Shown: piece by piece, positions 4,479-42,855 of the stretch
How positions within the stretch are numbered: the first letter of the stretch is position 1
How the letters are laid out: every line of letters begins with the position of its first letter
Assembly: GCA_051047955.1 (NCBI GenBank)
Contig: JBPGPT010000007.1
Coordinates: forward strand, 186,001-250,000
Direction of reading: 5' to 3'
DNA: 64,000 nt
From: Cystobasidiomycetes sp. EMM_F5
Taxonomy: Eukaryota
The notes under the pieces: model-generated
Told to the model about the DNA's origin: nothing
What the model saw: only the letters and a program-made list of their open reading frames with translations
The model's database searches: none
Position numbers and translations under genes: made by a program

Positions 4479-6552
4479 TCAAAGGGGCAACGTTGCGCAT
4501 ACCAAGCTTACAGTACCGGTAACGTGTAATTCTTCCCAAAGACTGACGTAGCCAGATTGCCATCCGCATTGAGCAATTCTTCCGCCGTAATCTTTGCGGC
4601 CGTGCTGCATGCACACCCATGTATGTTCAGCTGCAGGTTTCGTTTGCAGATGCAGGAAGCTCACAATATCGGAGTCGCACAAATGCATATTATGCCAACA
4701 GCCGTCTTCCACGCATACGAAATGTAGCTATGTCTTTTGATTGTGAACGGAGATCCATTTTGCAGCGTCTTGAGTGCCACAATGAGCAGTACTGCCGAGC
4801 CGAGCGTACACAACCCATAGTAGTAGGTCGTGAATGTCGGTTTCAGACTAGCGGCCGCAAATTCCGCAAACACACTCGTGTACGAGCGGTTCTCGCCAGA
4901 TGTGATGCTCGCAATCTGCTCGTCGCCATTATTGTAGATTTCCTCTTTAACCTCAAAGCCATACTTTGCGAAAACACGAGCAAGTATCGACAGTGATTCT
5001 CCCATAAAGAGCTGGTCGAACGTGGCGACGTTATTGCCAGCAATATATCGGAAAGACTGGACGTTGCCTGTACAGCCCACCGACGTTACTTTCTTTTGAA
5101 TGGCAAAGGTAACTAGGGGCCTGCGACTTACGGATCCAGTCTATACCAAGGTTTCTGAGGAAAGCAACGAGTTCTTGTCCGCTTTCTGATTCCGTAAGGA
5201 GTTCGGCTGCTGCTGTAACCGAAGCATTTGGACCAAAAGCAGCGCCAGTGCTATCAAATTCGGTGACCAAACGTTGGATGATGGTAGTATATTGCTGAAC
5301 TGCGTTCAGGGCACTGACGCTCGCGGTAATAGTCGCAACAGCTGTTTTTGAAGAGCAAAATCAGTGGGACAAGCTTACAGAGTAGATGCGAGATGGACTT
5401 GCATTGTGTGAAGAGCAAGATGGCCAAATGCATTGGATAATGGATGAGGCCCCAGAAGCAGTGCGTAAGCGGTCCTCCTCGGAGATGGTGCGTGTGTTGT
5501 TTGAAGTACAATCCTGTACGCGTATGCGTGGTGATCAGCAGGCCTTTCAAACAGGCAGAATACTCCGAGTATTAGAATATTCAGCCTACCAAACAAGATG
5601 CGATACAATCCCACTGCTGCAAAGATGCTTCCAAACACATTTGCGAATCTCGTCAAGTTGAAGCCGTCCAGGATAGATTTGAAGTTTTCATATATGCCAA
5701 TGATTCCCTCTCCGATGATGATGAGTGTCAGTGCAGCGAATCGCTCTGCCCAGTATTCAAGCTCAATTCTGAGTGCTGTCGAATGAGCGCTTGACACGGC
5801 CGTCGCTAGAAATTCGATAGCGAGTCCGATACTCCACAATGATATTCTTGCGATGCTTTGCGGTCTGTCGGAAGAGAAGGATAAACCGAATCCGATTGCC
5901 CACAGTGTCGCAGAAGCCGTCAAGCCGAGCATAACGATGAGGACCGAATGTCTCGCTACTCCGGCTTTCTTGGCGCGTGTATACATCCATGCGTAGCGGA
6001 GAAGAAGCAGTATGCGGAGAACAAAGAATACACCGGATGCAGCGAGCAGACTCCGTTGCTGTAGATCGGAACTGCCTTCGCTTTCTCCTCGTTGTATGAA
6101 TATAGGGACGTTCTCAAGATTCGGAGACTCTTCTTGATGCGATAGGCCATACCCGACGACAAAATTGCCGCTGACTGCAGCTAGTACACCGAATGCGAGA
6201 AGGTGGAGAAAGACAAAGGCTGTGGGGGGAGTGCATAAGATCTCGACTTGCGGTGGGGGTAGGGCGACTCACCATCATTGACGACATCCTTTGAGCCGAA
6301 TCTGACATCGTACACTGCATTCGCGGCCCATGTTGACCATAGGAGGGTAAAGTAGAGAATGTAGCTCGCTACATCGGCCCCTGTCGCTAGCTTTGCTTCT
6401 TTCGTGTATACGGCGAGGGCAGCTACGAAGAAGAGGTCGAAGAACAGTTCGTGGAAGCCCACTTTGATGTCCTTTCTACGCAGTCGCCCGTTGTCGACGT
6501 CGATATCGTGGTGGAATGGATTGGCTGGCAGGGATGGCAAGAGAGAACTCAA
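4479..6552 (-). CDS. Low temperature requirement protein A (LtrA)-family multi-pass membrane protein, multi-exon
   Basis: Family motifs VGFHELFFDLFFVAAL and EYWAERFAALTLIIIGEGI plus many hydrophobic helices (ORFs 6181-6552, 5375-5986, 4661-5080). Both ends approximate. Confidence 0.8.
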
Positions 6553-7220
6553 TGTTCACGCACTAGATGATACGTCGTGAGTCATGTATCGAGCCTCCCT
6601 CACCGATGAATGGCTTGTGTGTCTGGTTTGTTGCGTATTTGCAGAGATATGATCCGCTGAATGGGCATCGTCGAGGGGCACGGGGGAGTGAATACGGGGT
6701 CAGTGGTCAGTTTGCGAGTACAATGTCAGCGTCGTTGTCGTTGTCAGTGTCAGTATCGCAGCCATCACATAAAGTCACTCCATCAGCCCTTGCCACTGTG
6801 CACTCTCACACAACACAGTCTCACAATTGCAGCACTCTCATGGTCGCAGCTCGAGTAAACAGCAGCAGGCAGATGAATTGCAGGTTGGTTAGAGTGACAA
6901 GCACAACACTCGCTCAATCACAAGTCGCTACAATGCCGCTGCAACTGATACAGTGCCGACAGGAACACGCCTAATGGCACTAATGGATAACCTTTATGAC
7001 CCAGAAGAATGGTAAGGATGGTTATTGATTGGCGGAGAGCCAGACTGGGCGTGGTAGTAACCTGTAATAACCACTGCGACTTGTACGAGTATTGCTTTGA
7101 TGTTGTGTCTTGCTTCCATCTCCTCGACCACCGTCAGACGGCATCACCCATACGGTCGAGCAGCATTCATCATCGACTGGATATTGCCAGCTGCTCGTCG
7201 TCGTCTTGTATCGCCGTCTT

Positions 7221-28406: not shown

Positions 28407-29186
28407 TCATGGCGGCGGTGCTGACGTAGATGAGGAAGACGCCTCGCTCGCTGCTCCTCTTTGCATTCTGCATGTCCCATCAGTATACGTATCGACCAGG
28501 GAACGAGACTATACTTACTGTGGAAGTTCTGCCTCTATCCGCTCTCTTGCTCTCACAATCTTGCTTTGGATGTAGTGACTACTCGTCGCGTTCGACTTCA
28601 TCATGCGTTCGTAGTTTTCCAGCAGTTCCATCAGGAGCTTGTCGTCCTGTCCATTCAGCACGTCCCGCTTGACATTGAGGATATTGCACGCTTCATCGGG
28701 TGACATTCGGAATCGCCGTGATACGGCATCGCCAGCTTGTATCCCTGACCCTGCTTGCCCGGCGCCTAAGGCTGGACCACCCGCTCGCATGTCTGCAGTT
28801 GGGTCGGATTGTTCAAGTCAGCGCCACCATTTCTTCGTTGTTAGCGCATGATACGCATTGTGTTGCTTCTCGGGATGACTGGATATAGTGTCTGTGATTG
28901 ATTGGGAATGACTTACTTCTCCCCGCTTGCTTCCACGCTTCGACGAACGCACGTCCGAAAACTGATGATCCAAGCGGTATAAGCAATCAGCAGTCGTACA
29001 TGCCAAAGAATGAACAGCCTGCTCACTCTGTCCGCCCGCAATGACTATCTGCGCCATCACCCTCGGAAGAGCCTGTCGTGTCAGTCGTTGCAGATGAATA
29101 CAGAATGATGCAATTTCGAGAATCAGCATTCTCCCATAATATCGGCCAGGAATGGCATCCAGGCTATTGGATCGCAGACTGACCAT
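28407..29186 (-). CDS. PAM16: Mitochondrial import motor subunit Pam16/Tim16, multi-exon (first exon is apparently the ATG alone)
   Basis: AQIVIAGG..FGRAFVEAWKQA, MSPDEACNILNV, YERMMKSNA...SHYIQSKIVRARERIEAE; ATG at 29186 is followed immediately by a GTCAGT donor. Confidence 0.92.
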
Positions 29187-29702
29187 GATGGATAGACAGA
29201 CTTGTACAGAGTTGTGGTTGGACGAAAGTCAGCTGTTGCTGCTCGTTATGCGATCGTCTTGGTCAAAATTGCAAACGATGTTGCTTCACGGCTTGGTCCG
29301 CTACAGATTGACAATGTAATCCCATGCCATCTACGTACTCAGCCTTTCCTGACAGCCGACCTGCTATTCATGTTCTGCGATACAGCAAGCCGCCATCCCC
29401 CAATTTCGTAGCCACTTCGGCTTCCTGCTTCAGCGCGAAAACAACGGAGCGCACGCAATCCGGATATCCTTCCTTAGACCATGCGAAGCTCTGCTGGGTT
29501 CCGCTTTTGTCGGATGTGGAACAGGAGTAGCCGCCGAAGGGCTGTGTCCCTTTCTCTGCGATGCGACAACCTCACAGTTGGTGCGCAATGATTGGATGGG
29601 TGCTCTATCTTTTGTCTCTTCCCTGCTCGACACGACTTCAACAATCCAGGTTGTCTCGCAATAGAGAGTTTACCTACCACATCCTTTCCATCTCTTCCTA
29701 CG

Positions 29703-30092
29703 ATGCTGTCCTCAGCGCTCGCGCTACTACTCTTTTCCAGCGCCATCAGCGCCATCTTTGCCGCTCCTATCGCCTCCGATGCAGGTGTGCAGAGCAATGC
29801 GCAGATCGGTGCCGTTACGGCAGAACAAAGTTCACGCAATCCGGCCACAGCTGGAGGGGATGAGCAATTCAATACAAATGCAGCCTGGACTAACGAGCCA
29901 CCACTCACTACAGCTGTTACTACCCTGCCAAAGCATGGTACCATCACCGATACCTACACCTACAATGCTTACCCTTCAACCATCATTACTTCCGGAACGT
30001 ACACGTCTTCCGGACGGATTTACACGTACACCTACGGTTTACCGACGGGAAAGCCATCCACGTTACTTGACATTCGGACTTATACGTACTAG
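29703..30092 (+). CDS. Small secreted Thr-rich protein, array copy 1 (N-terminal extension, short loop)
   Basis: Signal-like MLSSALALLLFSSAISAIFAAP; HGTITDTYTYNAYPST...YTYGLPTGKPSTLLDIRTYTY; intronless. Confidence 0.75.
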   Translation: MLSSALALLLFSSAISAIFAAPIASDAGVQSNAQIGAVTAEQSSRNPATAGGDEQFNTNAAWTNEPPLTTAVTTLPKHGTITDTYTYNAYPSTIITSGTYTSSGRIYTYTYGLPTGKPSTLLDIRTYTY

Positions 30093-30652
30093 CGATTTAC
30101 TATCGTAATTTACGTGGTCTGTGCTCAGAACACTTTGTTGTTTGTCTGCGTTGTGTGAATGCCTCTCTTACACCATTCTACACATTTCGTCTTATTTGCC
30201 TTGCCAACCAAGACGCCGAACCTCGTCACTCTTCTTTCATCATACATGCAGAGAAGGCCATACGCATCGGCAAACCTACAGCAGACGAAATCCACGGACA
30301 ATTTACCTGATCGCTTCACGCCGAACTCCACCCAGTGGCAATCAACGAAGCATTTGGACAACCTGGATCTCAGGGTAGCACGGGTTGAAGCCGAGGAGCA
30401 ACACCTTTCCGATTCTTACCTTAGAATCTTTCCCTTACACCGCGTGCGAATATTTGGTCGCTGTCGCAAGCAGTGCGAGCGGTGCTATCCCTTTCTCGCG
30501 TGCTGGAGTATAAGTGCTCGCTGGAAACCTTCAGGCCTTTTTGCTTTCTATCATACCGCCTTCCATAAAAGTGAACAATCGGCTGTCAGCAATACACACT
30601 CTCTTCACAAGCACGTTCACATACAGACCCTGACACCAATCATCATCCCACA

Positions 30653-30961
30653 ATGCATTTCACCGTTCCAGCTATCGCTTGTATCGCCCAGGCTGCTCTG
30701 GTTCTGGCTGCGGCTCTACCTCAAGGCAGCCAGCATGGCACTCAGGTGGTCACATACACACACATATCGTATGACAGCACCAGTACCTCGTACGAAACGC
30801 GCACATACACCGAAGGAGAACACCGTACACTGAATCTGTCACCGGGTGTTGCCGATTCTGATCCGGCTCGCTGGTATCCTGCTACAACCGTGACGTATGC
30901 TCACGCCATTCCCACTGGCAATGCCGTCACCACCGTCGAGACTACCACTTATACTTGGTGA
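30653..30961 (+). CDS. Small secreted Thr-rich protein, array copy 2
   Basis: Signal peptide plus HGTQVVTYT...TRTYTEGEHR...ADSDPARWYPATT...IPTGNAVTTVETTTYTW; TATAA at 30509. Confidence 0.85.
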   Translation: MHFTVPAIACIAQAALVLAAALPQGSQHGTQVVTYTHISYDSTSTSYETRTYTEGEHRTLNLSPGVADSDPARWYPATTVTYAHAIPTGNAVTTVETTTYTW

Positions 30962-31494
30962 AGAGGGCAAAATCCCTGATTGGCTGGGCTATTTATGGCT
31001 GCTCTTTCCGGCTTGTTCTCTCACATAAGCCTGAGAGATACCATTTGTTGTCCGTACTCTTATCCGATTTCCATACTCCCTACCGTTCCCAGTCCTCCAT
31101 CCTGTTCAAGCTCGAATCAAGTTGGTAAAAGCTCGCTAGTATGTCGCTTCTTGCTCGGTTATAAGACCTCTTCTGTCCATCCGATTACAATTTTCCACCC
31201 AGATGTACTGAGAATGTACACCACTGCTATATGGCCCAGACAGGATCACAGCTTCATCACACATATCCCTTTATCGTCCTGTGACTGATTCGCAGCTATC
31301 GCGAGCCATCCGGGAGTGCACCGCTTGCTCGACAGCTTAAATATTGAGCGATGACCGAATGCGCACACCTGCTCTTTATCTTGCACTCTGCGGGATAACA
31401 TTGCCTTGTCTAGCCTGTTGAGGTTGCGCGTCTAGCCAAACCCCAACTCTCACTCGATACTTTCACCATCCCACGTCTACGCAAATACTACATC

Positions 31495-31794
31495 ATGTTG
31501 CACCGGACTACTCTACTCATGCTCTCCATTATCCAAGCTCCTCTAGCCCTGCCGCAAGGCGACATACACGGAACGGAGACATTTACATATACATTCACAG
31601 AGCACGAAAGTACCAGTGTCTCTTACTCGACGCGCACGTAGACCGAGGGAGAAACACGTCCACTAAAGATATCACCAGGCGCCGGCGATACCGATGCAGC
31701 TCGCTGGTACCCTGCCGCAACCAGCACGTACGCACATTATATTCCGACAGGTAATGTGGTCACAAGCGTCACGACTATGACGTATACCTGGTGA
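31495..31794 (+). pseudogene. Array copy 3 with a single in-frame TAG (absent from the ORF track)
   Basis: MLHRTTLLMLSIIQAPLALPQGDIHGTETFTYTFTEHESTSVSYSTRT*TEGETRPLKISPGAGDTDAARWYPAATSTYAHYIPTGNVVTSVTTMTYTW; TAG at 31639-31641 aligns with TAC (Tyr) in copy 2. Confidence 0.85.
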
Positions 31795-32453
31795 ATCTGT
31801 TACACACGTTGCTGCATGCATACATGGAGCACAAAAATGGCTCTGCCACTGTGTTGGGTAGTAGCCCAGGTGTGCTGTTGCTGTAACGAGTCAGAGCACA
31901 AAAGGTGACACGTCACTCTAGCGAGCCAAGGCAATAATCGAGCGATGGTGAAAGACTCAGCGCTAAGTCGTCCAAAATAGCTCGTCATTCCCATCACAGA
32001 GAAAATGGTTTGTAAACTCCGATCTCTGTTCACAATTTGAGGACAACTTCGAACGATTTCTGCTCCCCATGCGGGATGCTTGCGGAGACAGCCGTAATCT
32101 CACACAACAATCATCAATGGCCTGGAAGGTTCGTCTGCGAAAGTAGCGCGTTTTCACCCCCTTTCTCGCGGATAGCTTGCGATGCTACCTCGCTTACCTC
32201 GCGCCACCAGCCTTTGTGGTGTGGGAGAATGCGCATTCAGAACGAATATGGCTATGCGGCCCCTTTCTTGGCCAACCCAAGCCACTCCAGCTCTATAAGA
32301 GGGTGGCATCACAGTCTTCACACCTCGGATCTGCATCACATACTTTCTTTGAGGACTTCCACACACACACAGCAAAGCTCTCTTCGCCACGCCCACCCTT
32401 TTTCACGTCGACATCCTCACGCTCCTACGTATACCCTCGCATATATATAGACA

Positions 32454-32738
32454 ATGTTCGTCTCCATTCTGTTCGTTCTTGTGGCGATTGCCCAGGCCAC
32501 TCTGGCTTTACCGCTACGGCCCGCCCACGGAACTGACACCGACACCTACACTTATTTGGTGTGGCCTAGTACCAGTACAGAATTGAGAACCGTCACAGAG
32601 ACGTATTACAATATATGGCATTCGGGACTGTCGTCGGGTCCTGAGGCAACGCCTACGACCCCTACAAATGTCTACACATTAGTGTGGCCGACTGGCGATT
32701 CTTCCCTTACCACCGAGACCACGACCTCAACATGGTAA
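32454..32738 (+). CDS. Small secreted Thr-rich protein, array copy 4 (subfamily B)
   Basis: Signal peptide plus HGTDTDTYTYLVWPSTSTE...WHSGLSSG...VYTLVWPTGDSSLTTETTTSTW; TATAA at 32294. Confidence 0.85.
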   Translation: MFVSILFVLVAIAQATLALPLRPAHGTDTDTYTYLVWPSTSTELRTVTETYYNIWHSGLSSGPEATPTTPTNVYTLVWPTGDSSLTTETTTSTW

Positions 32739-33544
32739 ATATGATGCGCAGGCCAATTGCAGTTTCGATGGGAAGCAGAAGCGTGATGCGTGCACCAGGC
32801 ACGCTTGGCAGCAGTGTCAACGAGCGATCACTTTGTGAACGCCGTAGAGCTATTGAAGGCGATAGATACCCTTCCATGTGTGTCTCGTACTCGGCAAACC
32901 CCGCTATCATTCTTCCAGAACTCCTTGCTGTGCTGCCCTCATATCGCACAGATCCGTCCATGGTTTCCTCCGACTAGGTTAATTTGTTTGCTTACGGTAC
33001 CTGCCTGGTGCATACATCGAGCTTCCACGCTGTGTACCAATTGACAATGCTCAGGCAGCTGTTCGATGCTTAAATAAACAGACCGAGTATGAAATTGCCT
33101 TATTCCGTTCTCGCGGAGACTGGCATCGTGGTGAGCATTCTTCAATGCCGGCGAAGTCTTTGGGTTTTCTGCATTATCGCTTATTCAGCCGGTCCAAGAG
33201 GCTCGACATGGAAGCGTACACGGTTCCATACAGATGACTACCGTTCCCTTCATCATGCTGCGCACACGGATATGCGCGCAAATTTAAAGCAGGTATATCC
33301 GAAACTCACATGGGTGATTCCCGTAGAACCTCGCTTACCTTGCGCCATCAGCCTTTGTGGTGTGCGAAATATATCTATCGCAGGGATGGCTGTGTGATCC
33401 CTTTCTGTTCTACCCTCATCTGCTCCCGTTCATAGATATTCATGAAATCTGAAACAAACCTCGCTCCACATCTTGGTCCTGAACCACGCTTTTCAGTACT
33501 TCTCCACCCACTTCCCCACTCACCTTTTTTGCACCGTATAAAGA

Positions 33545-33835
33545 ATGCTTTACTGCACTCTCTCTGTACTCGCAATGGCGCATGTCGCTTTGGCCAGGCC
33601 TCTTTATAGACCACCACCACCTCACGGAACGACTACTGTCACTTATACTACCAGTGCATGGCCCAGCACCAGCACTGAGTTTCTGACATTGACTCAGACT
33701 GGTTACAATGTTTGGCATTCGGGCTTGTCATCTGGTCTGGAGGCGACCCCAACAATTTTCACAACAGTTTACACACTCGAGTGGCCAACCGGCGAGCAGT
33801 CACTTACTACACAGACTGAGACCTCAACATGGTAG
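33545..33835 (+). CDS. Small secreted Thr-rich protein, array copy 5 (subfamily B)
   Basis: Close paralogue of copy 4: HGTTTVTYTTSAWPSTSTE...WHSGLSSG...VYTLEWPTGEQSLTTQTETSTW. Confidence 0.85.
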   Translation: MLYCTLSVLAMAHVALARPLYRPPPPHGTTTVTYTTSAWPSTSTEFLTLTQTGYNVWHSGLSSGLEATPTIFTTVYTLEWPTGEQSLTTQTETSTW

Positions 33836-34356
33836 GTTCTCATGCAGGGTCCTCCAACGCGGAAGCGTGCTGCGCTTGTAGAGACAGAGTCCATACCCTG
33901 CGTTTACGAGATATATCACGCTACTAGAATGACCGCCGCAGAGCTTACGCTGTCGGTTAATACTACCATATTTAACCCCACTACCCACCAAATTTCGTTA
34001 CAAACGCTTCGCAATACCTCGTTACGGGCAGGGCCAACTTCATGCCTCTACCATCAACTGCAGTGCTGTATGTGCGCATCTCAGGCCATCTATGGCGACT
34101 ATGGGAAAGGCTTGGCGTAGGGCTATGTTTTCAACTCATCGCCTTTTCGCAATCATTACGGCCAATGAAAGGCCGCCAAATGCAGTGAACACCGCCGTCT
34201 TATCCTTTGCGTCCCGCATACAGGCCTCATCGTTACTTTGCATGTGTTGCTGAAGCTGCACACGCATTGACATACACTCATCATCTCCCAGATCTTCCGC
34301 TTGCGACACATTGTCACGACGCCGTCGCGCTCTAATCTCTCATACGTCACTATAGG

Positions 34357-34665
34357 ATGCTTCTTCCATGCTTCATCACAATAGGCATCGTAACGGCCGC
34401 CATCGCCTCACCCGTCGATTCCAGGGTTGATCAACACACAACCGTGACGCTTACGACGACCCTTGAAGTGTACGATTTCTTCACATCATACGATGTCCGC
34501 ACATACTCAAGAGGCCAAGTCCGATATGTCACCGTCGAGCCAAGTTTGGCGGAAGCAAGTCCAGATATTTACTTCCCTGCAACGACGGTAACGTACACTC
34601 AAGAGATGGCGACGGCCGCGCCGCATACTCAGATCGTCACCAAGACTTACACATACCGCCCATGA
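34357..34665 (+). CDS. Small secreted Thr-rich protein, array copy 6
   Basis: Signal peptide plus HTTVTLTTT...RTYSRGQVR...ASPDIYFPATTVTY...IVTKTYTYRP. Confidence 0.8.
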   Translation: MLLPCFITIGIVTAAIASPVDSRVDQHTTVTLTTTLEVYDFFTSYDVRTYSRGQVRYVTVEPSLAEASPDIYFPATTVTYTQEMATAAPHTQIVTKTYTYRP

Positions 34666-34950
34666 TCTGCACCTGTTTTTTTCCGTTGTTTTGCTTTTCG
34701 TGCTACGACACCCGTTGTTGACCTATGTTCCGAGTTCTAGCTTGCCGACCAGGAAAGCGCCAGTATCTGTGCAAGTTTATAGTTTGGCAAGGCTGACATA
34801 ATGTTCGTGAAGAAATCTATTACATCAGACCATTCAGAAGGCTGCATGTCTTGATTACTCAAGCTACTCTACGGCATAGTGGCTACAAGTCACTGTGTGG
34901 TCCCTCATCAATATCGACTGACTCTCAGTCGCACTCTATTGTTTCCTCTG

Positions 34951-36169
34951 TCACTTGCCCGTCAATACTACCAGCTTGCCTGTAGCATGACCATCTTCCA
35001 TACGCTTATGTGCCTCAACAATCTTCTCGAGACCTTCGTACACAGTATCAATCGGTACTTTAGCAACACCTTGCTGCAGAGCGTCAATGAAACTCTGTAG
35101 ACCTTCCCGAGTGAGATCTTCAGCACCTCCACCGTAGCTTGTCAAACGGACGCCCTTCGGTATAAATTCTGTAAAATGACATCAGTCCCAAGGTCTGAAG
35201 GGGCGCACAGTAACGAACCCATCGGATACATGTCTTTAATGGTCCAATCATCATTCAGCATACCAGTAAAACAAGCTGTACCCTTAACTTTGATTGCGCG
35301 AAGTGTATCGCGTAAGGCTGTTGCTCCGACCAGTTCGATGGCGCAATCAACGCCATCCGGCTGAATGTCTCTGACTTTTTCCGAGACTGCTCCGTCGTCA
35401 ATGATGACATGGTCCACACCAATCTTCTTGAGGGAATCAGATTTCCTCGCATTTCGCGTTGTCGAAAGGACGGTCATACGTCTCTGCTTTGCAAGGACAG
35501 CAGCACACATGCCCACAGAAGAAGTACCTCCGCGAATGAGAATGGACTGTCCGGCCTTGCCATCGCAGCCAACATCGAGCGACCCCAAAGCCGTCTGTAG
35601 CATCTCCGGCAGAGCACCCAGTTGTCCCCAGTCAGGATTGTCGGCCTCGAACTTGATGACGTTGGTTGCTAGAACGCAAGTCATCTCGGCATACCCTCCA
35701 TGTCGTGCTGTAGATATCAGATTGTTGTCAGATCTTATACCTTCCCCGCAACGTGTGCCCATTTCGCGTACTGCGGCCCATTCCTCCCATCATTGTTACG
35801 ACCTAGCATCAAGTCAGTGCGAGTACAGATTGCAATGCCTGTAAAGGCCTTACGCACCTTGTCGCCTGCAGCAAACTCCCCGCCTGGACATTCCGCTACC
35901 ACTCCCGTTGCCTCGATACCGAGGACCCTTGGAAATGTTACGCCTTCAGCAAGACCCTTTCTGGTGTGATACTCTGGTGAAACCCATGTTAGAGCTGCGT
36001 CTGCCTCGTAAGGGGCACCCTGCGCACCAGAGCGGTTCAGTCCAAAGGCCTTGACGATAATCAAGACTTCGCCATGGCCAGGCTTTGGAACGGGCAAATC
36101 TACAATCTTGAGGCCCTCTGGCGGAGCAGGAGCGCTGTCTAGAAGCACGGCTCTCATAGTGGAAGCCAT
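34951..36169 (-). CDS. NADPH:quinone oxidoreductase-like protein (MDR family), multi-exon
   Basis: GEVLIIVKAFGLNRS, FPRVLGIEATGVV, GGYAE, LIRGGTSSVG, GVDCAIELVG, AHKRMEDGHATGKLVV. Confidence 0.9.
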
Positions 36170-36896
36170 TGTGCTGTCTCCTGCAGTGGTCGCGCTCTCA
36201 GCAGCCAACTTACACCTGCCGATAGCATTCACATCACCACCGCCTCGGCTACGGGATCACACTGACCAAACACAATACGAATTACCGTCAACTTTGATTG
36301 CTACTGTCAGGCTGCAGTGTTCAGTATCTACTCATTCATCGATATCGATTCTGTGCGCAGGCCTATCTTGCAGCCTATGGAAGAGCGTGAAAAAAGTACG
36401 TCCTCCCTGGGCTTCGATAGCCCTGTCGACGCTGCTTCGTTCGAGCAGCTCACAGTACCTTGTTTGTATGCGTCGCTTCAACTCAGTCAATCGCGAACCG
36501 TCAGTGTGATATACTGTGTGCGCTGACGCGCTCGGACGCATTCCGTACCGTGAGACGATTCTGGCGAGTGAATCAAGGAATGCCAGACTCCCATGCATCG
36601 CTGCACACCAGTTCAACAGCGAACATGCCAAGAACCTTGCAGACAATGGCCACGGCTACAGGACGCTTGTCACCGGGTTGCGCCCGAAATTCTCAGCAAC
36701 GCGCCATTGGCATCCTGGGAGGCGAGTGTGTCAGATGTCCTTGCGATACAGTCACTAGAAAAAGGGAGGTTAGTATAAGTGGACCGCTTGCGACTCAAGC
36801 ACCCTTGCTTCTGCACCATACAGTGAGTAACCAAGCACTGCTAAGCTCGCCATCCACCCAATCTATCACTCTCGTTTATTACGTGCCACCGCTATC

Positions 36897-37202
36897 ATGA
36901 TGCTCGTCCATACAACCCTGGCACTGTGCATTGCTGCGGCCAGTGTTTCTGCTATTCCCGTGCCCTCCGCTTCGACTAGCGAGACGGTTACATGGACTAT
37001 GGCCTCCTATCCAGGCTACACTACTGGCTCCTCCACATACACCTATTCCAAGGGCGAGATGCGTCCTGTACCGGTAGCAGAGGACGAGGCACGAGCAGAT
37101 CCTGACAGATACCTGCCCGCGACAACGGAGGTTGCTATTTCGCTCGTTCCCACTGGCGAACCCGTATGGTACACCACAACTGCGACCTTCGCATGGAAGT
37201 AG
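36897..37202 (+). CDS. Small secreted Thr-rich protein, array copy 7
   Basis: Signal peptide plus ETVTWTMASYPGYTTGSSTYTYSKGEMR...ADPDRYLPATT...PTGEPVWYTTTATFAWK; TATAA at 36774. Confidence 0.88.
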   Translation: MMLVHTTLALCIAAASVSAIPVPSASTSETVTWTMASYPGYTTGSSTYTYSKGEMRPVPVAEDEARADPDRYLPATTEVAISLVPTGEPVWYTTTATFAWK

Positions 37203-37628
37203 CACCGGCGTGGCATGATTGGGTGTCAGTAAAGCAGTGTATTATGTTTTCTCAATTTGGTTCAGGCTGCCGCAGAAGAGGAATGCAGACAGCGAGGAAG
37301 CTTACATTGAGTATGGACGAGGATCACCTGACGCATGCCTATAACCCAGTCGTTTCCGCACTTACTGACAGAGATAACCCAGCTTACGTTGAGATGGACT
37401 GTGCTGCGAAATCGCGACGTCAGCCGATAAATTCAGGCGGCGTGGCGATATGACGGACGCTTGCAGTAGATCCATAGGGGTACGTTCCCTCTCTCAGATC
37501 CGCTATGCATGCGCCGGTATGAAATGGAGTGAAAATAGCACTGCGTCAATGGCACTTGGTCTCGCGATACCAGCCCGACTCATTTCAGGCCTTTCAAACC
37601 GCATATATCAGTCCCACAAACTAGCACC

Positions 37629-37830
37629 ATGACCATCATCAAGGCTTCACTCGCGCTATTCATGGCCGCTACCGCTAAATAGCAGCGGCGTGAGCCGTGT
37701 TCTCTTCGGTATCTGCAAATGTGGGGCATGCAGATCCTGATAAACACAATCCTGCAAAAACGGTGGCCAAAGTTCACCTTCTCGGGTCTGTCGATCCCTC
37801 GAACTATACCACAGCTGCAATGGTCGGTAG
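37629..37830 (+). pseudogene. Degenerate array copy with early stop, internal deletion and frameshift
   Basis: MTIIKASLALFMAATAK* (signal-like) followed in another frame by SVSANVGHADPDKHNPAKTVAKVHLLGSVDPSNYTT, which aligns to the VAEDEARADPDRYLPATTEV...PVWYTT half of the neighbouring copies. Confidence 0.7.
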
Positions 37831-38392
37831 CTACCCACTCCTCAGTATCGCTACGCAATGCAGGCTTATCTGCCAGCCTGTGCGGCTGCTCAACAGATAT
37901 TTACATCGTCTCTGGGCTTCGACAGCCCTATCGTAACTGCTACATCGAAAAGCCGACAGTGTACCGTCTGTATGCGTATCTTCGACTCAGTCAATCGCGG
38001 ATATCCAGTTCGAAGGATGCGCTGACGCGCTCCAACGCTTTCCATACCCTAAAAAATCCTGGCGAGCAAGCCAAGGAATGCCATTCCCGCGTCGGTCGCT
38101 GCACACCAAAGTGACAGCAGGTATGCCAAGGGCCTTTCTCACTCTGGTCACGGCCGGAGGATACTCGTCACCGGGTTGCCTCCGGGTATCTCACCTGCCC
38201 TCCATTGTAACCGCTGGGACGCCAGCGTACAATAAGTCTGCGATGCATCCGCTCGGGAAGAGGGAGGTTCGTCCAACAGGGTCTTTGTGCTTTGTTCACT
38301 CTCGCCTTTGCACCAATCAGTGCACCACCCATCTCCGGCTTTGCACTCCACTTTCTTCCAACACTTTCGTCTCTTCACATAGCGTAATCACA

Positions 38393-38698
38393 ATGATGCT
38401 CGTTCACGCAACCCTCACACTATGCATTACCGCCATTAGTGTTTCCGCTGCACCCGTTCCGGCACCTTCGACGACCGAGACAGTCACATACACCTCAGCA
38501 TCCTACTCGGATTACATCACTAGCTCGTCCACGCGGTCCTTGACCGTAGGCGAGATGCGCACTATCTCAGTACCCGAGGACGTGGCACGAGCAGATCCTG
38601 ACAAATACCTCCCCGCGACAGAGATCGTTAAAGTTTCGGTGATCCCGGTTGGCGAACCTGTCTGGTATACTACAACCGAAACATATGAATGGAAGTAG
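38393..38698 (+). CDS. Small secreted Thr-rich protein, array copy 8
   Basis: MMLVHATLTLCITAISVSAAP...GEMR...ADPDKYLPAT...PVGEPVWYTTTETYEWK. Confidence 0.88.
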   Translation: MMLVHATLTLCITAISVSAAPVPAPSTTETVTYTSASYSDYITSSSTRSLTVGEMRTISVPEDVARADPDKYLPATEIVKVSVIPVGEPVWYTTTETYEWK

Positions 38699-39204
38699 TA
38701 GCAGCTTTTATCTGAAACACTACTTCGAGCGGCAGAAAGCTACGTGTTGTCTAGTTTGACGCAGTAGCCAGGGCGGCGCAGAGTCAGTTCCGGCGAATTG
38801 ACAACAGTAGGATTGCTATAGTAGTCTGTCTCTCCTGCTGCCAAGCTAAATGATGCGCTGACGCGCCACAATCCAGCAAGCCAAGGCGTACCAGACTTCC
38901 ATATTTCACTGCACATCACTGTACCAGCAGATTTGCAAAGACCCCTTCTGACAGTGTTTACGCTTGGATGACGGTCGTCACCGGCTTGCGCCCGACATTC
39001 TCACTGGCGCGCGGTTGAGATGCTGGGAGGCAAGTGTGTCAGATGAACTTGCGGTACAGTCACTGGGAAAGAGGCGGTAGTATAAGTAGACCGCTTGCGA
39101 CTCAACCACCCTTACTTCTGCACCATACAGTGAATTACCGAGCACTGCTAAGCTCGCCATCCGCCCAAGCTATCACTCTCATTTACTCACATACCACTGC
39201 TATC

Positions 39205-39510
39205 ATGATGCTCGTCCACGCAACCCTAGCACTGTGCATTGCTGCGGCCTGTACTACTGCTGTCCCCGTTCCATCGGCTTCGTCTAGCGAGACGTACACA
39301 TTTACTATGGCCTCTTACCCTGGCTACAGTACTGGCTCGTCCACTTACACCTATTCCAAGGGCGAGATGCGCACTATACAGGTAGCAAAAGACGTTGCAC
39401 TAGCAGATCCTGACAGATACCTGCCTGCAACAACGGAGGTTGTTGTTTCGGTTGTCCCCACTGGCGAACCAGTCTGGTACACTACAACCGAAACATACGG
39501 ATGGAAGTAG
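39205..39510 (+). CDS. Small secreted Thr-rich protein, array copy 9
   Basis: Near-duplicate of copy 7 including promoter (TATAA at 39081); ADPDRYLPATT...PTGEPVWYTTTETYGWK. Confidence 0.88.
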   Translation: MMLVHATLALCIAAACTTAVPVPSASSSETYTFTMASYPGYSTGSSTYTYSKGEMRTIQVAKDVALADPDRYLPATTEVVVSVVPTGEPVWYTTTETYGWK

Positions 39511-39969
39511 CGACAGCATGTCATAACATATTGTCGGTAAAGAGAGTGTACTATGTATTTCGTTGATTATGACACAATCCCACCACGCGAGCCCGTATCT
39601 TTACCATCGTTGCAGGCTTTACTAACAGATGTCTACTTTCTGACGTCTAAACCTACTGTGAAGAGTGACAGGATGAAAATTGACCATTCGCATGCATTCG
39701 CCAATATCATGCAGGGTGACCGGCTCGCTGTCCTGCGATAGAGCCTGGGTTCGCAGGCATCGAGCCATGTTGCGGTGTGAGACCTCCCTCGCCGGAGCGC
39801 TTCCATCGGACTCGACCCTAGTGATGAGAAATAGCTGTGCAGCCACGACGCGGGAAGTTCTCAAAAAGCGACAGCGCTATGACCACTCTTGACTTCGTGT
39901 TATCCGCTCATACACACACACTTTTCAAACAGGCCTGCAAATCTACTTCAATATCGACACTCACATCTA

Positions 39970-40290
39970 ATGCTGCTCAAGGCTACATTTGCGCTCTGTG
40001 TGACTGCTGCCGTCGTTTCCGCTGCTCCACTAGTGACCGTCGAATCTGTCATCAATCCCACTACTACCGAGGTTCGCACCATCACAGGTCTTTCATACGC
40101 TGGCTCAATCCTCTCCACATCCTGGCGTACCCTCACCAAGGGCGAGCCGCGTCCCTTGACGAGCCTACCGAGTGATTTATCTCAGAGTCCCGATAAGTAC
40201 TATCCCGCAACGACTATGGCAAACGTTGCACTTGTCGGCACCGGTGTAGGTACTCCTTACACCACGGTCGTTACGCACATCGCCAAGTAG
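39970..40290 (+). CDS. Small secreted Thr-rich protein, array copy 10
   Basis: MLLKATFALCVTAAVVSAAP...RTLTKGEPR...SPDKYYPATT...GTPYTTVVTHIAK. Confidence 0.82.
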   Translation: MLLKATFALCVTAAVVSAAPLVTVESVINPTTTEVRTITGLSYAGSILSTSWRTLTKGEPRPLTSLPSDLSQSPDKYYPATTMANVALVGTGVGTPYTTVVTHIAK

Positions 40291-40600
40291 ACTTGAACAA
40301 CGTTGAATCAGCATGATCGATACGCGCGTTCAATTGCCATTTCCCCGCACTTTACTTTTCGTAGAGCATTGGTTTGCAACCATCAGGCATGTGTTGTGTT
40401 GCTCTTTCGTAATGACTTTCGCAGACCATTGATCTGTTTATGTGATTTGCATCACTGGCCTATCGGAGACTTGACATATTGCGCCCCCACACGTGCATCG
40501 AATGCCGTCACGGTCTGCCAATATCGAGAGCGACCTTGTAGCAGCGTTTGAGCATATTGAGGATTATCGTTGTGTCCACCGATTTGTAGTAAATCGTTGC

Positions 40601-42855
40601 ATGCTCAGCAGACGAGTCGCCGTCTCTGCTCGCTCAGCCAGTCTCGCAGTATCGCGTATAGCTCCCATCCGGCTCTTTACATCAACACACTCGGTCATCA
40701 TGGCAGCTGTCCAGAGGATCCGCGTAGCTAGCGTGGACGATTTGAAAGATGGATCCATGAAGGAGGTGAGTCTGCATGTATTCAGGAAAGAAACAGGCTC
40801 CTCGATGGCTGAGAGCGTTGCATATCCCCCGTGACGATAGGTTGAATTCGGCGATGCTGGAAAGGTATTGCTGTCAAAGATCAAAGGACAGCACTACGCT
40901 ATCGGCAGCAAGTGCTCGCATTACGGTGCTCCGCTGGCCAAAGGTGTCATTACTCCAGAAGGTCGCATCGTTTGGTGAGCTGCGACCGCGTTGACGCTGT
41001 AATGCCGGTGGCTGACATCGTACAATCCTCAGCCCGTATGTTGCTTCGAATGCTTCACTTCTATTCTACTTATTCTTTGCCCCGACAGATGGCACGGAGC
41101 CTGCTTCAACGCGTGCACCGGCGACATCGAAGACGCCCCTGCCCCGCAGAACCTACAAGCGTTTAAGGTGCATACTGCGCTACGACAGTTCAAACGTTCG
41201 GTGTCTCACTAATGCGTTATTCAGGTTGACATTGACGGAAAAGATATCTACGTCTCGGCCGATCCTGCACTCGTCAAGCAAAACACTCGAAGCACAAAGC
41301 CGCCTGCCGGAACTGCGGCTGCTGATACCAAGGGGGTTGTCTTTGTCGGAGGCGGTAGTGGCGCCCTGTACGGTGTCGAAGGATTGCGCGAGGTGGGGCT
41401 GCTAAGTACACCTTACGAAAACATGCTCAAATTAGGTATCTCCAGTCTGGGTACACTGGTCCTATCAAGATCATCTCCCAGGAGAACTATCTTCCAATTG
41501 ATCGCACAAAGCTGTCAAAGGCGCTCATTGATGATGCATCGAAATTAGCAGTGCGTGACGAGCAGTGGTACAAGGACAACAAGGTAGATCTTGAACTCGG
41601 CAAGACTGTTGAGAGCGTCGACATCGAGAAGCAGACAGTGTCTGTGCAAGGGGGCAGCAGTGTCGGTTACGATCACTTGGTGTTGGCTTCTGGTGCTACT
41701 CCCAGCGTGAGTTCATCCGAGTCAAATACAGAATGCAAGGCTAATTACTAATTCAATGCGATCATGCAGCGCTTGCCGATTGACGGAGCAGACCTTGGCA
41801 ATGTCTTCGTCCTGCGGACTATTGAAGATACCAAAGCGATAAACTCCGCAATCGCTGCCTTCTCTACATCTCAGCCCGAAGTGTTGCAGAAAGCCGAGGA
41901 GAAACTTGGTGTAGACGGACCCTTCAAACCAAACCTCGTAGTCATCGGGTCTAGCTTCATCGGCATGGAAGTCGCCCTGGCTGGTGCAAAGAAGGCCAAT
42001 GTCACAGTCGTTGGAATGGATAAGGTTCCGTTCGAAAAGATCCTCGGTCCTCAAATCGGTAACGCTCTGCGCAAGAATCACGAAAAGCAGGGAATCAAAT
42101 TCCACCTTCCTGCTGAACTGTCGCATCTCAAGCCGTCCGACAAGGACAGCAAGAAGGTCGGAGCAGTGGTACTCAAGTCCGGAGAGGAGGTGCCTGCGCA
42201 CGTCGTTATTATGGGAACAGGGGTTAAACCCGTCACCGGTTACGCACAGAAGATTCCCGGCATCCAGCTTAACGACAAGGACAAGTCTATCACAGTAGAT
42301 GAGCAGTTGAGATTAAAAGGCATCGGGAAGAACAACGTATACGCAGTTGGCGATATTGCCTACTTCCCCGATGTCAAAACGAATGAGTCTCTTCGCATTG
42401 AGCACTGGAATGTTGCAGGTAATCATGGCAGATCTGTCGCAAATGCCATCACCGGTAGCAAGGAGCCGTATAACAAGGTAAGCTTTAGCCCGGTGTGCGC
42501 ACGAGTATTAAGGACTGATGCGGAGTAACCACCAGACGGCCATTTTCTGGTCAGCTCAGGGCGCACAATTGCGCTACGTCGGGTCGTCCAAATCGTCGCA
42601 GTGGGATGATGTATACATTGACGGCAACCCGGAGGAGCTCAAGTTTATTGCTTACTATGGCAGTACGTCCATCCCATCATAAGCTTCGTTGCGCAGGCTG
42701 ATTGTGCATTCGCAGAGGGCGACGAGATTGTTGCTGTATGCAGCATGGGCAGAGATCCGATTGTCACCCACTGCAGCGAGCTGTACACAAAGCAAAAGAT
42801 GCCGTCGTACAGCGAGGTCAAGTCTGGTAAGGATCCCTTGACGATTTCGTTGTAA
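40601..42855 (+). CDS. Rieske-domain AIF-like flavoprotein (AIFM3/Aif1-like pyridine nucleotide-disulfide oxidoreductase), multi-exon
   Basis: Rieske CSHYGAPL...[58 protein letters not shown]; Arg/Ser-rich mitochondrial-type presequence. Confidence 0.92.

Follow-up and report, generated by a model that had tools for sequence, protein, structure and literature searches.

A tandem array of genes for small, threonine-rich proteins with signal-like N-termini and cysteine-free mature parts in a Cystobasidiomycetes genome

Fungal genomes commonly carry tandem clusters of genes for small orphan secreted proteins. Hydrophobins, which have eight conserved Cys residues and four disulfides, and bacterial chaplins are small, amphipathic, secreted proteins that form multigene families. 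The DUF3494 proteins are a known type of fungal ice-binding protein; they occur in Typhula, Leucosporidium and Glaciozyma and have a size of ~25 kDa. In aerolysin-like toxins, the insertion hairpin has one polar (Ser/Thr) face and one uniformly hydrophobic face. Here we describe a tandem array in a 64,000-nucleotide stretch of DNA from Cystobasidiomycetes sp. EMM_F5 (GenBank assembly GCA_051047955.1, contig JBPGPT010000007.1, positions 186,001 to 250,000), hereafter the window. Between positions 29703 and 40290, its plus strand carries nine intact, intronless open reading frames (ORFs) of 94-129 amino acids (aa) that belong to one paralogous family. Judged from its sequences, this is a real tandem gene family, new in sequence, of the well-known kind in which orphan genes for secreted proteins are clustered in tandem.

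The family resembles effector-type clusters of small secreted proteins in its tandem paralogues, its putative signal peptides, its lack of recognisable domains and its birth-and-death evolution. It differs from them in being Cys-free, in the strict TxT periodicity of its Thr residues, in its purifying selection and in its housekeeping neighbourhood. As with hydrophobins and chaplins, a role as a coat is plausible for such a small, amphipathic and putatively secreted multigene family; unlike hydrophobins, it has no Cys in the mature part of any of the ten copies compared (the nine intact ones and one interrupted by a stop codon), and it gave no Pfam hydrophobin match. Like the DUF3494 proteins, it would be a secreted fungal family with multiple isoforms in a basidiomycete, whereas those proteins are larger and the family has no DUF3494 profile match in our Pfam scan. 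Aerolysin-like toxins have a larger, multi-domain fold, whereas the family has 75-108 mature residues and no other domain.

PMC13080227 describes the TxT antifreezes of arthropods (Tenebrio molitor, spruce budworm, Rhagium inquisitor and a Clubiona spider) as beta-solenoids, whose ice-binding faces are TxT arrays on adjacent strands, made of Thr, Ser and Ala with few charges; Rhagium inquisitor has longer TxTxTxT arrays. Like the proteins described there, the family has Thr at positions i and i+2 and many isoforms, and it may also share their secretion and the arrangement of such Thr in rows on adjacent strands, as a flat, near-uncharged Thr/Ser/Ala face. The arthropod proteins are solenoids, often with disulfides, whereas the family is predicted to form two hairpins and a helical loop, has no Cys and gave no sequence or fold match to them in our searches. 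The CFP protein of Beauveria bassiana (PMC8546967) is likewise small, lacks Cys and known domains and has a predicted signal peptide. The paper reports that it carries a nuclear localisation signal (residues 24-57), is nuclear and is confined to some Hypocreales. We rejected CFP as a relative on account of that location and distribution and of the family profile, which matched only the window's own proteins and four repeat proteins.

Copies, relatives and evolution of the family

We built a hidden Markov model (HMM) from the nine intact copies and scanned it over 2333 six-frame pieces, which made up the entire 64-kb window. All nine intact copies were recovered, at E values of 4e-43 to 8e-17, together with two disrupted ones. 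The array is laid out as follows:

29703-30092, plus strand: copy 1 (c1), 129 aa; divergent, with a long low-complexity N-terminal extension and without the central loop
30653-30961, plus strand: copy 2 (c2), 102 aa, intact; structure modelled
31495-31794, plus strand: copy 3 (c3), pseudogene or strain variant, with an in-frame TAG at 31639-31641
32454-32738, plus strand: copy 4 (c4), 94 aa; WHSGLSSG loop subfamily
33545-33835, plus strand: copy 5 (c5), 96 aa; WHSGLSSG loop subfamily, sister of c4
34357-34665, plus strand: copy 6 (c6), 102 aa, intact
36897-37202, plus strand: copy 7 (c7), 101 aa, intact; structure of the mature part modelled
37706-37816 (approximate), plus strand: decayed relic with the C-terminal family part only (profile positions 59-95), E 1e-4
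38393-38698, plus strand: copy 8 (c8), 101 aa from MMLVH; the longest ORF (206 aa) runs from 38078
39205-39510, plus strand: copy 9 (c9), 101 aa from MMLVH; the longest ORF (155 aa) runs from 39043
39970-40290, plus strand: copy 10 (c10), 106 aa; weakest Thr ladder, without a C-terminal W/Y

The family copies lie 459-2231 nucleotides (nt) apart, all on the same strand. The two halves of c3 are in the same frame and matched the profile at E 1.5e-12 and 4.7e-09, and its TAG stands at the position of a Tyr in c2. Because the next-best six-frame match had an E value of 0.6, we conclude that the 64 kb hold no further family copies. In leave-one-out profile tests, c2-c10 were recovered at E 8e-16 to 8e-38, and c1 was marginal (E 0.0011, 16.3 bits). 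The reasons for counting c1 as a divergent member are its place in the array and its strand, together with a signal-like start, an HGT.T.TYTY strand, an LPTG turn and an RTYTY end. The upstream ORF extensions of c8 and c9 have a homologous sequence 5' of c7, which lies outside the coding frame of c7; the MMLVH common to c7, c8 and c9 is therefore the likely start of c8 and c9.

We estimated the ratio of nonsynonymous to synonymous divergence (dN/dS) by the Nei-Gojobori method. Apart from the closest pairs, most were saturated at synonymous sites. The closest pairs gave the following values:

c7 and c9: dN/dS 0.29, dS 0.40
c7 and c8: dN/dS 0.28, dS 0.91
c8 and c9: dN/dS 0.36, dS 0.70
c4 and c5: dN/dS 0.12, dS 2.3
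c2 and c3: dN/dS 0.25, dS 1.25

The close pairs are thus under purifying selection (dN/dS 0.12-0.36). As dN/dS is well below 1 despite synonymous divergence that runs from 0.4 to saturation, the frames have long been kept open and constrained. All four Thr codons are used in similar shares (ACT.28, ACC.30, ACA.24 and ACG.18; n=177), which argues that Thr richness has been selected at the protein level and does not stem from a nucleotide repeat. These data bear on the alternative that the copies are not functional genes but ORFs that arose by chance or are decaying within duplicated non-coding DNA. The absence of c2, c4, c5 and c6 from the public protein collections that we searched would fit such a view, whereas nine ORFs have stayed open over this divergence, the start, the signal-like region, the turns and the stop position are conserved, and frame-specific profile matches go down to E 1e-43; together with the low dN/dS, they make it extremely unlikely.

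In a tree of the copies, array neighbours were sisters, with support of 100/100 for c4 and c5, 96/94 for c7-c10 and 84/86 for c7 and c9. Neighbouring sister copies, a nonsense copy and a relic point to birth-and-death evolution by local tandem duplication; the array would have grown by such duplication and would lose copies through decay. The first-pass annotation of this DNA had counted nine intact and two disrupted paralogues of an unrecognised family and had proposed birth-and-death evolution for them. The count agrees with the ORFs and the six-frame scan, in which c3 and the relic are the disrupted members, and the proposed mode of evolution is borne out by the adjacent sisters, the range of dS, the nonsense codon in c3 and the relic.

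That the family had gone unrecognised is likewise consistent with our searches, which found no Pfam, PDB-sequence or fold match and no relative in the collections covered. No Pfam family matched eight of the nine intact copies at E <= 1; the sole Pfam row, ALMS_repeat on c8 (17.7 bits against a cutoff of 30), was judged spurious. The PDB sequence search returned 0 matches at E <= 10. The best ESM Atlas score was 0.84, under the level that counts, and there was no usable named cluster. Searched against 5.8 billion clusters through a word index, the family profile gave five matches, all of them (5/5) to the window's own proteins. An exhaustive HMMER search against 1.84 billion representatives gave eight matches at E <= 0.001, four to the window's own proteins and four to long repeat proteins, each of which was matched in 5-15 stretches. 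Three of these repeat proteins (P0007, P0009 and P0010) were inspected and judged compositional; the fourth is P0008. Two scans of metagenome contigs matched 75 and 284 pattern stretches, with no relative among them. Within the literature covered, which mostly left out subscription journals, we found no fungal secreted family with a TxT ladder and no fungal ice-binding example of this type.

Of the nine intact copies, five have called proteins in the searched collections; for c2, c4, c5 and c6 there are none. In two of the five called proteins (155 and 206 aa), the ATG used lies further upstream, so that the signal-like N-terminus would end up inside the protein. The absent and over-long records suggest that gene callers missed some copies and gave others a wrong start. 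As the searched collections contain no close relative of the host, missing homologues are what would be expected for a small, fast-evolving secreted protein. Status as an "orphan" or "lineage-specific" family is thus weak evidence, and confinement to one species is not implied.

Threonine ladder and predicted fold

Secretion was assessed with a crude signal-peptide heuristic, which looked for a hydrophobic 10-mer without charge and applied the -3/-1 rule. It was passed by nine of the ten copies; among the controls, which were the window's ATG ORFs of 90 aa or more from outside the family, 3 out of 106 passed. The mature parts, as defined by the heuristic cleavage sites, are ~75-108 aa long. 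They contain 0 Cys in 10/10 copies and consist of 21.5% Thr, 9.7% Ser, 8.4% Pro and 7.5% Tyr. The C-termini read ...TYTW, ...TYTY, ...TSTW, ...WK, ...YRP and ...HIAK. The family copies lack KR and RR dipeptides as well as internal repeats, which argues against a Kex2-processed repeat precursor of the kind that gives rise to dikaritin-type RiPPs and repellents, in which core peptides recur between dibasic KR sites.

The Thr residues of the mature parts are spaced in a regular manner. We counted 68 TxT motifs against 37.2 +/- 4.9 expected and 30 TxTxT motifs against 7.5 +/- 3.0 expected, counts that 0 of 1000 shuffles reached in either case, in copies that are related and hence are non-independent trials. 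The TT and TxxT spacings showed no enrichment over shuffles. Only three residues of the mature part, T34, T36 and T99 (c2 numbering), are invariant across the nine intact copies, and all three fall on the modelled ladder faces. A central loop of the form GExR...DPxxYxPATT is present in 7/10 copies, replaced in c4 and c5, and absent from c1; for this reason, the hairpins rather than the loop would be the common core.

These results agree with the sequence features listed in the first-pass annotation. The signal-like N-termini that it noted are supported by the contrast between the copies and the control ORFs, and its description of the mature regions as Cys-free and Thr-rich fits their composition, as does its exclusion of hydrophobins. 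All of the motifs that it quoted (HGT/ET..TYT, the GExR...DPxxYxPATT loop, WHSGLSSG in c4 and c5, and the PTG turn) were found, a C-terminal W/Y is present in every intact copy but c10, and the copy sequences have neither Kex2-repeat cores nor glycosylphosphatidylinositol (GPI) tails, as it had stated.

We modelled c2 with AlphaFold2 (AF2), using the paralogues as the alignment, and made a second run on mature c7. The c2 model had a predicted local distance difference test score (pLDDT) of 82 overall and >90 across the mature part. It contains a signal helix, strands at 30-40 and 43-52, helices at 64-74, and strands at 78-87 and 91-101; the elements of the c7 model come in the same order. The mature fold is thus predicted to be a pair of beta-hairpins with a short helical loop between them. 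As it contains neither coils nor repeats, this prediction does not correspond to a beta-solenoid. We also considered hairpin 2 as an internal duplicate of hairpin 1 and rejected this idea (hhalign probability 1.9%). A homodimer prediction of mature c2, run without an alignment and without controls, scored 0.00 and gave no verdict.

In the modelled strand register, Thr+Ser would account for 72% of the hairpin 1 ladder face, with 1% charged residues, and for 44% of the hairpin 2 ladder face, with 15% Ala/Gly and 3% charged residues. The faces opposite the ladder would be 22-30% aromatic, 21% aliphatic and 10-21% charged. The hairpin 2 ladder is degraded in c7-c10.

The composition also bears on another view, in which the proteins are heavily O-mannosylated, mostly unstructured Ser/Thr-rich glycoproteins of the wall or matrix, the Thr residues simply serve for glycan attachment and the modelled fold is artefactual. 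O-mannosylation is common among secreted fungal proteins rich in Ser and Thr, and the Thr, Ser and Pro contents of the mature parts (21.5%, 9.7% and 8.4%) would suit such a protein, as would the low predicted template modelling score (pTM) of the models (0.43-0.46). Glycan attachment would require neither a strict i, i+2 period nor invariant positions, yet both are present; Thr alternates with conserved aromatic and aliphatic residues, and two independent AF2 runs gave the same four strands. We therefore regard this view as very unlikely.

Candidate functions

We favour a reading of the family as non-catalytic extracellular proteins that bind or coat a surface through a working face formed by the Thr ladder, whether on the cell wall of the fungus or at an interface. 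This tentative reading, which draws on composition and predicted structure, has a probability of roughly 0.45 in our estimate. Small Cys-free proteins would be directed to the secretory pathway by an N-terminal signal peptide that is cleaved off. In the mature part, a short helical loop would connect two long beta-hairpins. Each hairpin would present the Thr ladder on one face, with TxTxT on paired strands, and its other face would be aromatic and aliphatic with some charged residues. The aromatic faces and the loop might provide a core or a self-association surface, and the flat, uncharged, hydroxyl-rich Thr face may be the surface that does the work. The proteins would act outside the cell, where they may bind or coat the wall of the fungus itself or an interface.

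Several observations weigh against this reading. The c3 copy narrowly fails the signal heuristic, which is itself crude, and the ladder is largely lost in c10, which has 3 TxT motifs. The family sequences have no wall-anchoring feature, with neither a GPI-type hydrophobic C-terminus nor a Cys. The c7 model had a pLDDT of only 66, pTM was 0.43-0.46 over the c2 and c7 models, and the strand register and faces were read from turn positions in the DSSP strings of these predicted models. Structural comparison with VIA-align gave a best Z of 2.4, and there was no structural neighbour at Z 2.5; the missing neighbours may mean that the protein is extended or non-globular or that the model is wrong.

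What the Thr face binds could also be ice. In such a case, a flat Thr i, i+2 array would organise ice-like water and dock on ice, the proteins would act as antifreeze or ice-recrystallisation-inhibiting proteins, and many tandem isoforms would give dosage and diversity. Ice binding is the most specific mechanism compatible with the conserved TxT ladder, by analogy with antifreeze proteins. The enrichment of TxT and TxTxT fits it, as do the Thr/Ser/Ala-rich, nearly charge-free modelled ladder faces, the invariant ladder Thr residues, the signal-like N-terminus, which suits an extracellular role, and the many isoforms of the family. TxT arrays on adjacent strands are described as ice-binding faces in PMC13080227, whereas the TxT antifreezes treated there are beta-solenoids and our models show two hairpins. 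The family has no disulfides to stiffen so small a sheet, and its ladder has decayed in the second hairpin of c7-c10 and in c10 as a whole. There was no sequence or fold match to solved antifreeze proteins, the fold result being inconclusive, and the paralogues are old and very divergent rather than recently amplified. The best named matches of the window's CAND1 gene include a psychrophilic Pucciniomycotina yeast, but at 41% identity, which is uninformative on the habitat of the host. Weighing these points, we consider an ice-binding role unlikely. Still somewhat less likely is the more specific proposal that the family represents a new, Cys-free type of fungal ice-binding protein, with a TxT/TxTxT ladder on two hairpins, convergent with the insect and spider antifreezes and unrelated to DUF3494.

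Foldseek gave 0 matches against the PDB at E <= 0.001, and the top weak rows were stems of beta-pore-forming toxins (lysenin, aerolysin, epsilon toxin, iota Ib and CDTb), with Foldseek E values of 0.46-2, TM scores <= 0.23 and VIA-align Z of 2.0-2.4, which is noise level. At such scores, these rows signify only "long hairpins". Taken at face value, they would suit effectors, toxins or antimicrobials directed at a host or competitor, including a pore-forming variant in which amphipathic hairpins assemble into a beta-barrel, and fungal effector clusters typically consist of tandem genes for small, secreted, lineage-restricted proteins. The modelled face opposite the ladder carries 10-21% charged residues, which argues against a lipid-facing surface and so against a barrel inserted into a membrane. 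In addition, dN/dS of 0.12-0.36 gives no sign of diversifying selection at the level of whole genes, and the array is surrounded by housekeeping genes (CAND1, Sec39, UPRTase, Pam16, NUP159 and DOT1) rather than by repeat-rich or subtelomeric DNA. A role as effectors or toxins is accordingly doubtful, and surface binding or coating by the Thr face is the reading that we prefer.

The genomic pattern of the array is ordinary. Its unusual traits are the strict TxT periodicity with invariant ladder Thr residues, the absence of Cys and the predicted two-hairpin architecture without a structural neighbour. If the Thr face coats the wall or an interface, as we favour, the family would provide a hydrophobin-independent surface protein in the little-studied Pucciniomycotina. 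If it binds ice, the family would offer a minimal antifreeze scaffold that lacks disulfides and arose independently, useful for studies of the evolution of ice-binding faces and as a small protein for engineering. In either case, that 4 of the 9 intact genes are missing from the searched protein collections illustrates what gene callers overlook.

Genomic surroundings and upstream regions

The array was placed between PAM16 and an AIF-like gene by the first-pass annotation, and Pam16 (PF03656) and Pyr_redox_2 matches confirmed this position. A further gene inside the array, missed earlier, is the sole non-family gene there. These features, and a conserved block upstream of c7, are as follows:

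28515-28790, minus strand: Pam16 gene flanking the array (PF03656, 37 bits against a cutoff of 30.3)
35142-36169, minus strand: zinc-dependent alcohol dehydrogenase/quinone-oxidoreductase-like gene (ADH_N and ADH_zinc_N), between c6 and c7
36574-36878, plus strand: block upstream of c7, 73-89% identical to 38882-39185 upstream of c9
41359-42525: Pyr_redox_2 (AIF-like) gene, the other flank of the array

The alcohol dehydrogenase-like gene consists of two overlapping ORF pieces, which are probably separated by an intron. The remaining window holds housekeeping genes: FMO-like, LtrA-like, CAND1/TIP120, Sec39, a tetratricopeptide repeat (TPR) protein, uracil phosphoribosyltransferase (UPRTase), NUP159, DOT1 and an ABC transporter. 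Most of the housekeeping genes of the window are broken into several ORF pieces, consistent with introns. The LtrA-like gene (5378-6555, minus strand, two ORF pieces) encodes a membrane protein of family PF06772 (low temperature requirement A), a family name that by itself is no indication of cold adaptation. Between 28000 and 42000, we found no tRNA genes and, with Tandem Repeats Finder, no tandem DNA repeats.

We used exons of two of these genes for comparison with other fungi. The nearest non-self relative of the Sec39 exon was 45% identical; the nearest named relative was Cystobasidium minutum (46% over 66% of the query), and identities to Agaricomycotina were 31-38%. The CAND1 exon was 41% identical to Phenoliferia, 40% to Meredithblackwellia, 37-38% to Rhodosporidiobolus, 38% to Microbotryum and 36% to Melampsora. 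On these protein identities, the host is a Pucciniomycotina-affine basidiomycete of a poorly sampled lineage, whose nearest sampled relatives are 40-46% identical in Sec39 and CAND1.

The 350 nt upstream of c7 and c9 share 56-90% identity, and identity drops to background directly past the stop codon. Flank comparisons of c2 with c3 and of c9 with c10 were disregarded because the flanks of these pairs overlap. The conserved upstream block is likely a promoter or a 5' untranslated region or leader. Among upstream k-mers, none common to all copies was convincing, and only CT-rich words recurred, in 4-5 of the 10 copies. TATA-like strings (tatatata, tataaa) occur at 32436-32453 and 33532-33544, ~5-15 nt 5' of the ATGs of c4 and c5, too near these ATGs for the usual promoter TATA. 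GC skew is negative throughout 29000-41000 (-0.06 to -0.18 per kb), intergenic DNA included, and the leaders directly 5' of the ATGs are C/T-rich; both the skew and the leaders fit co-oriented transcription units.

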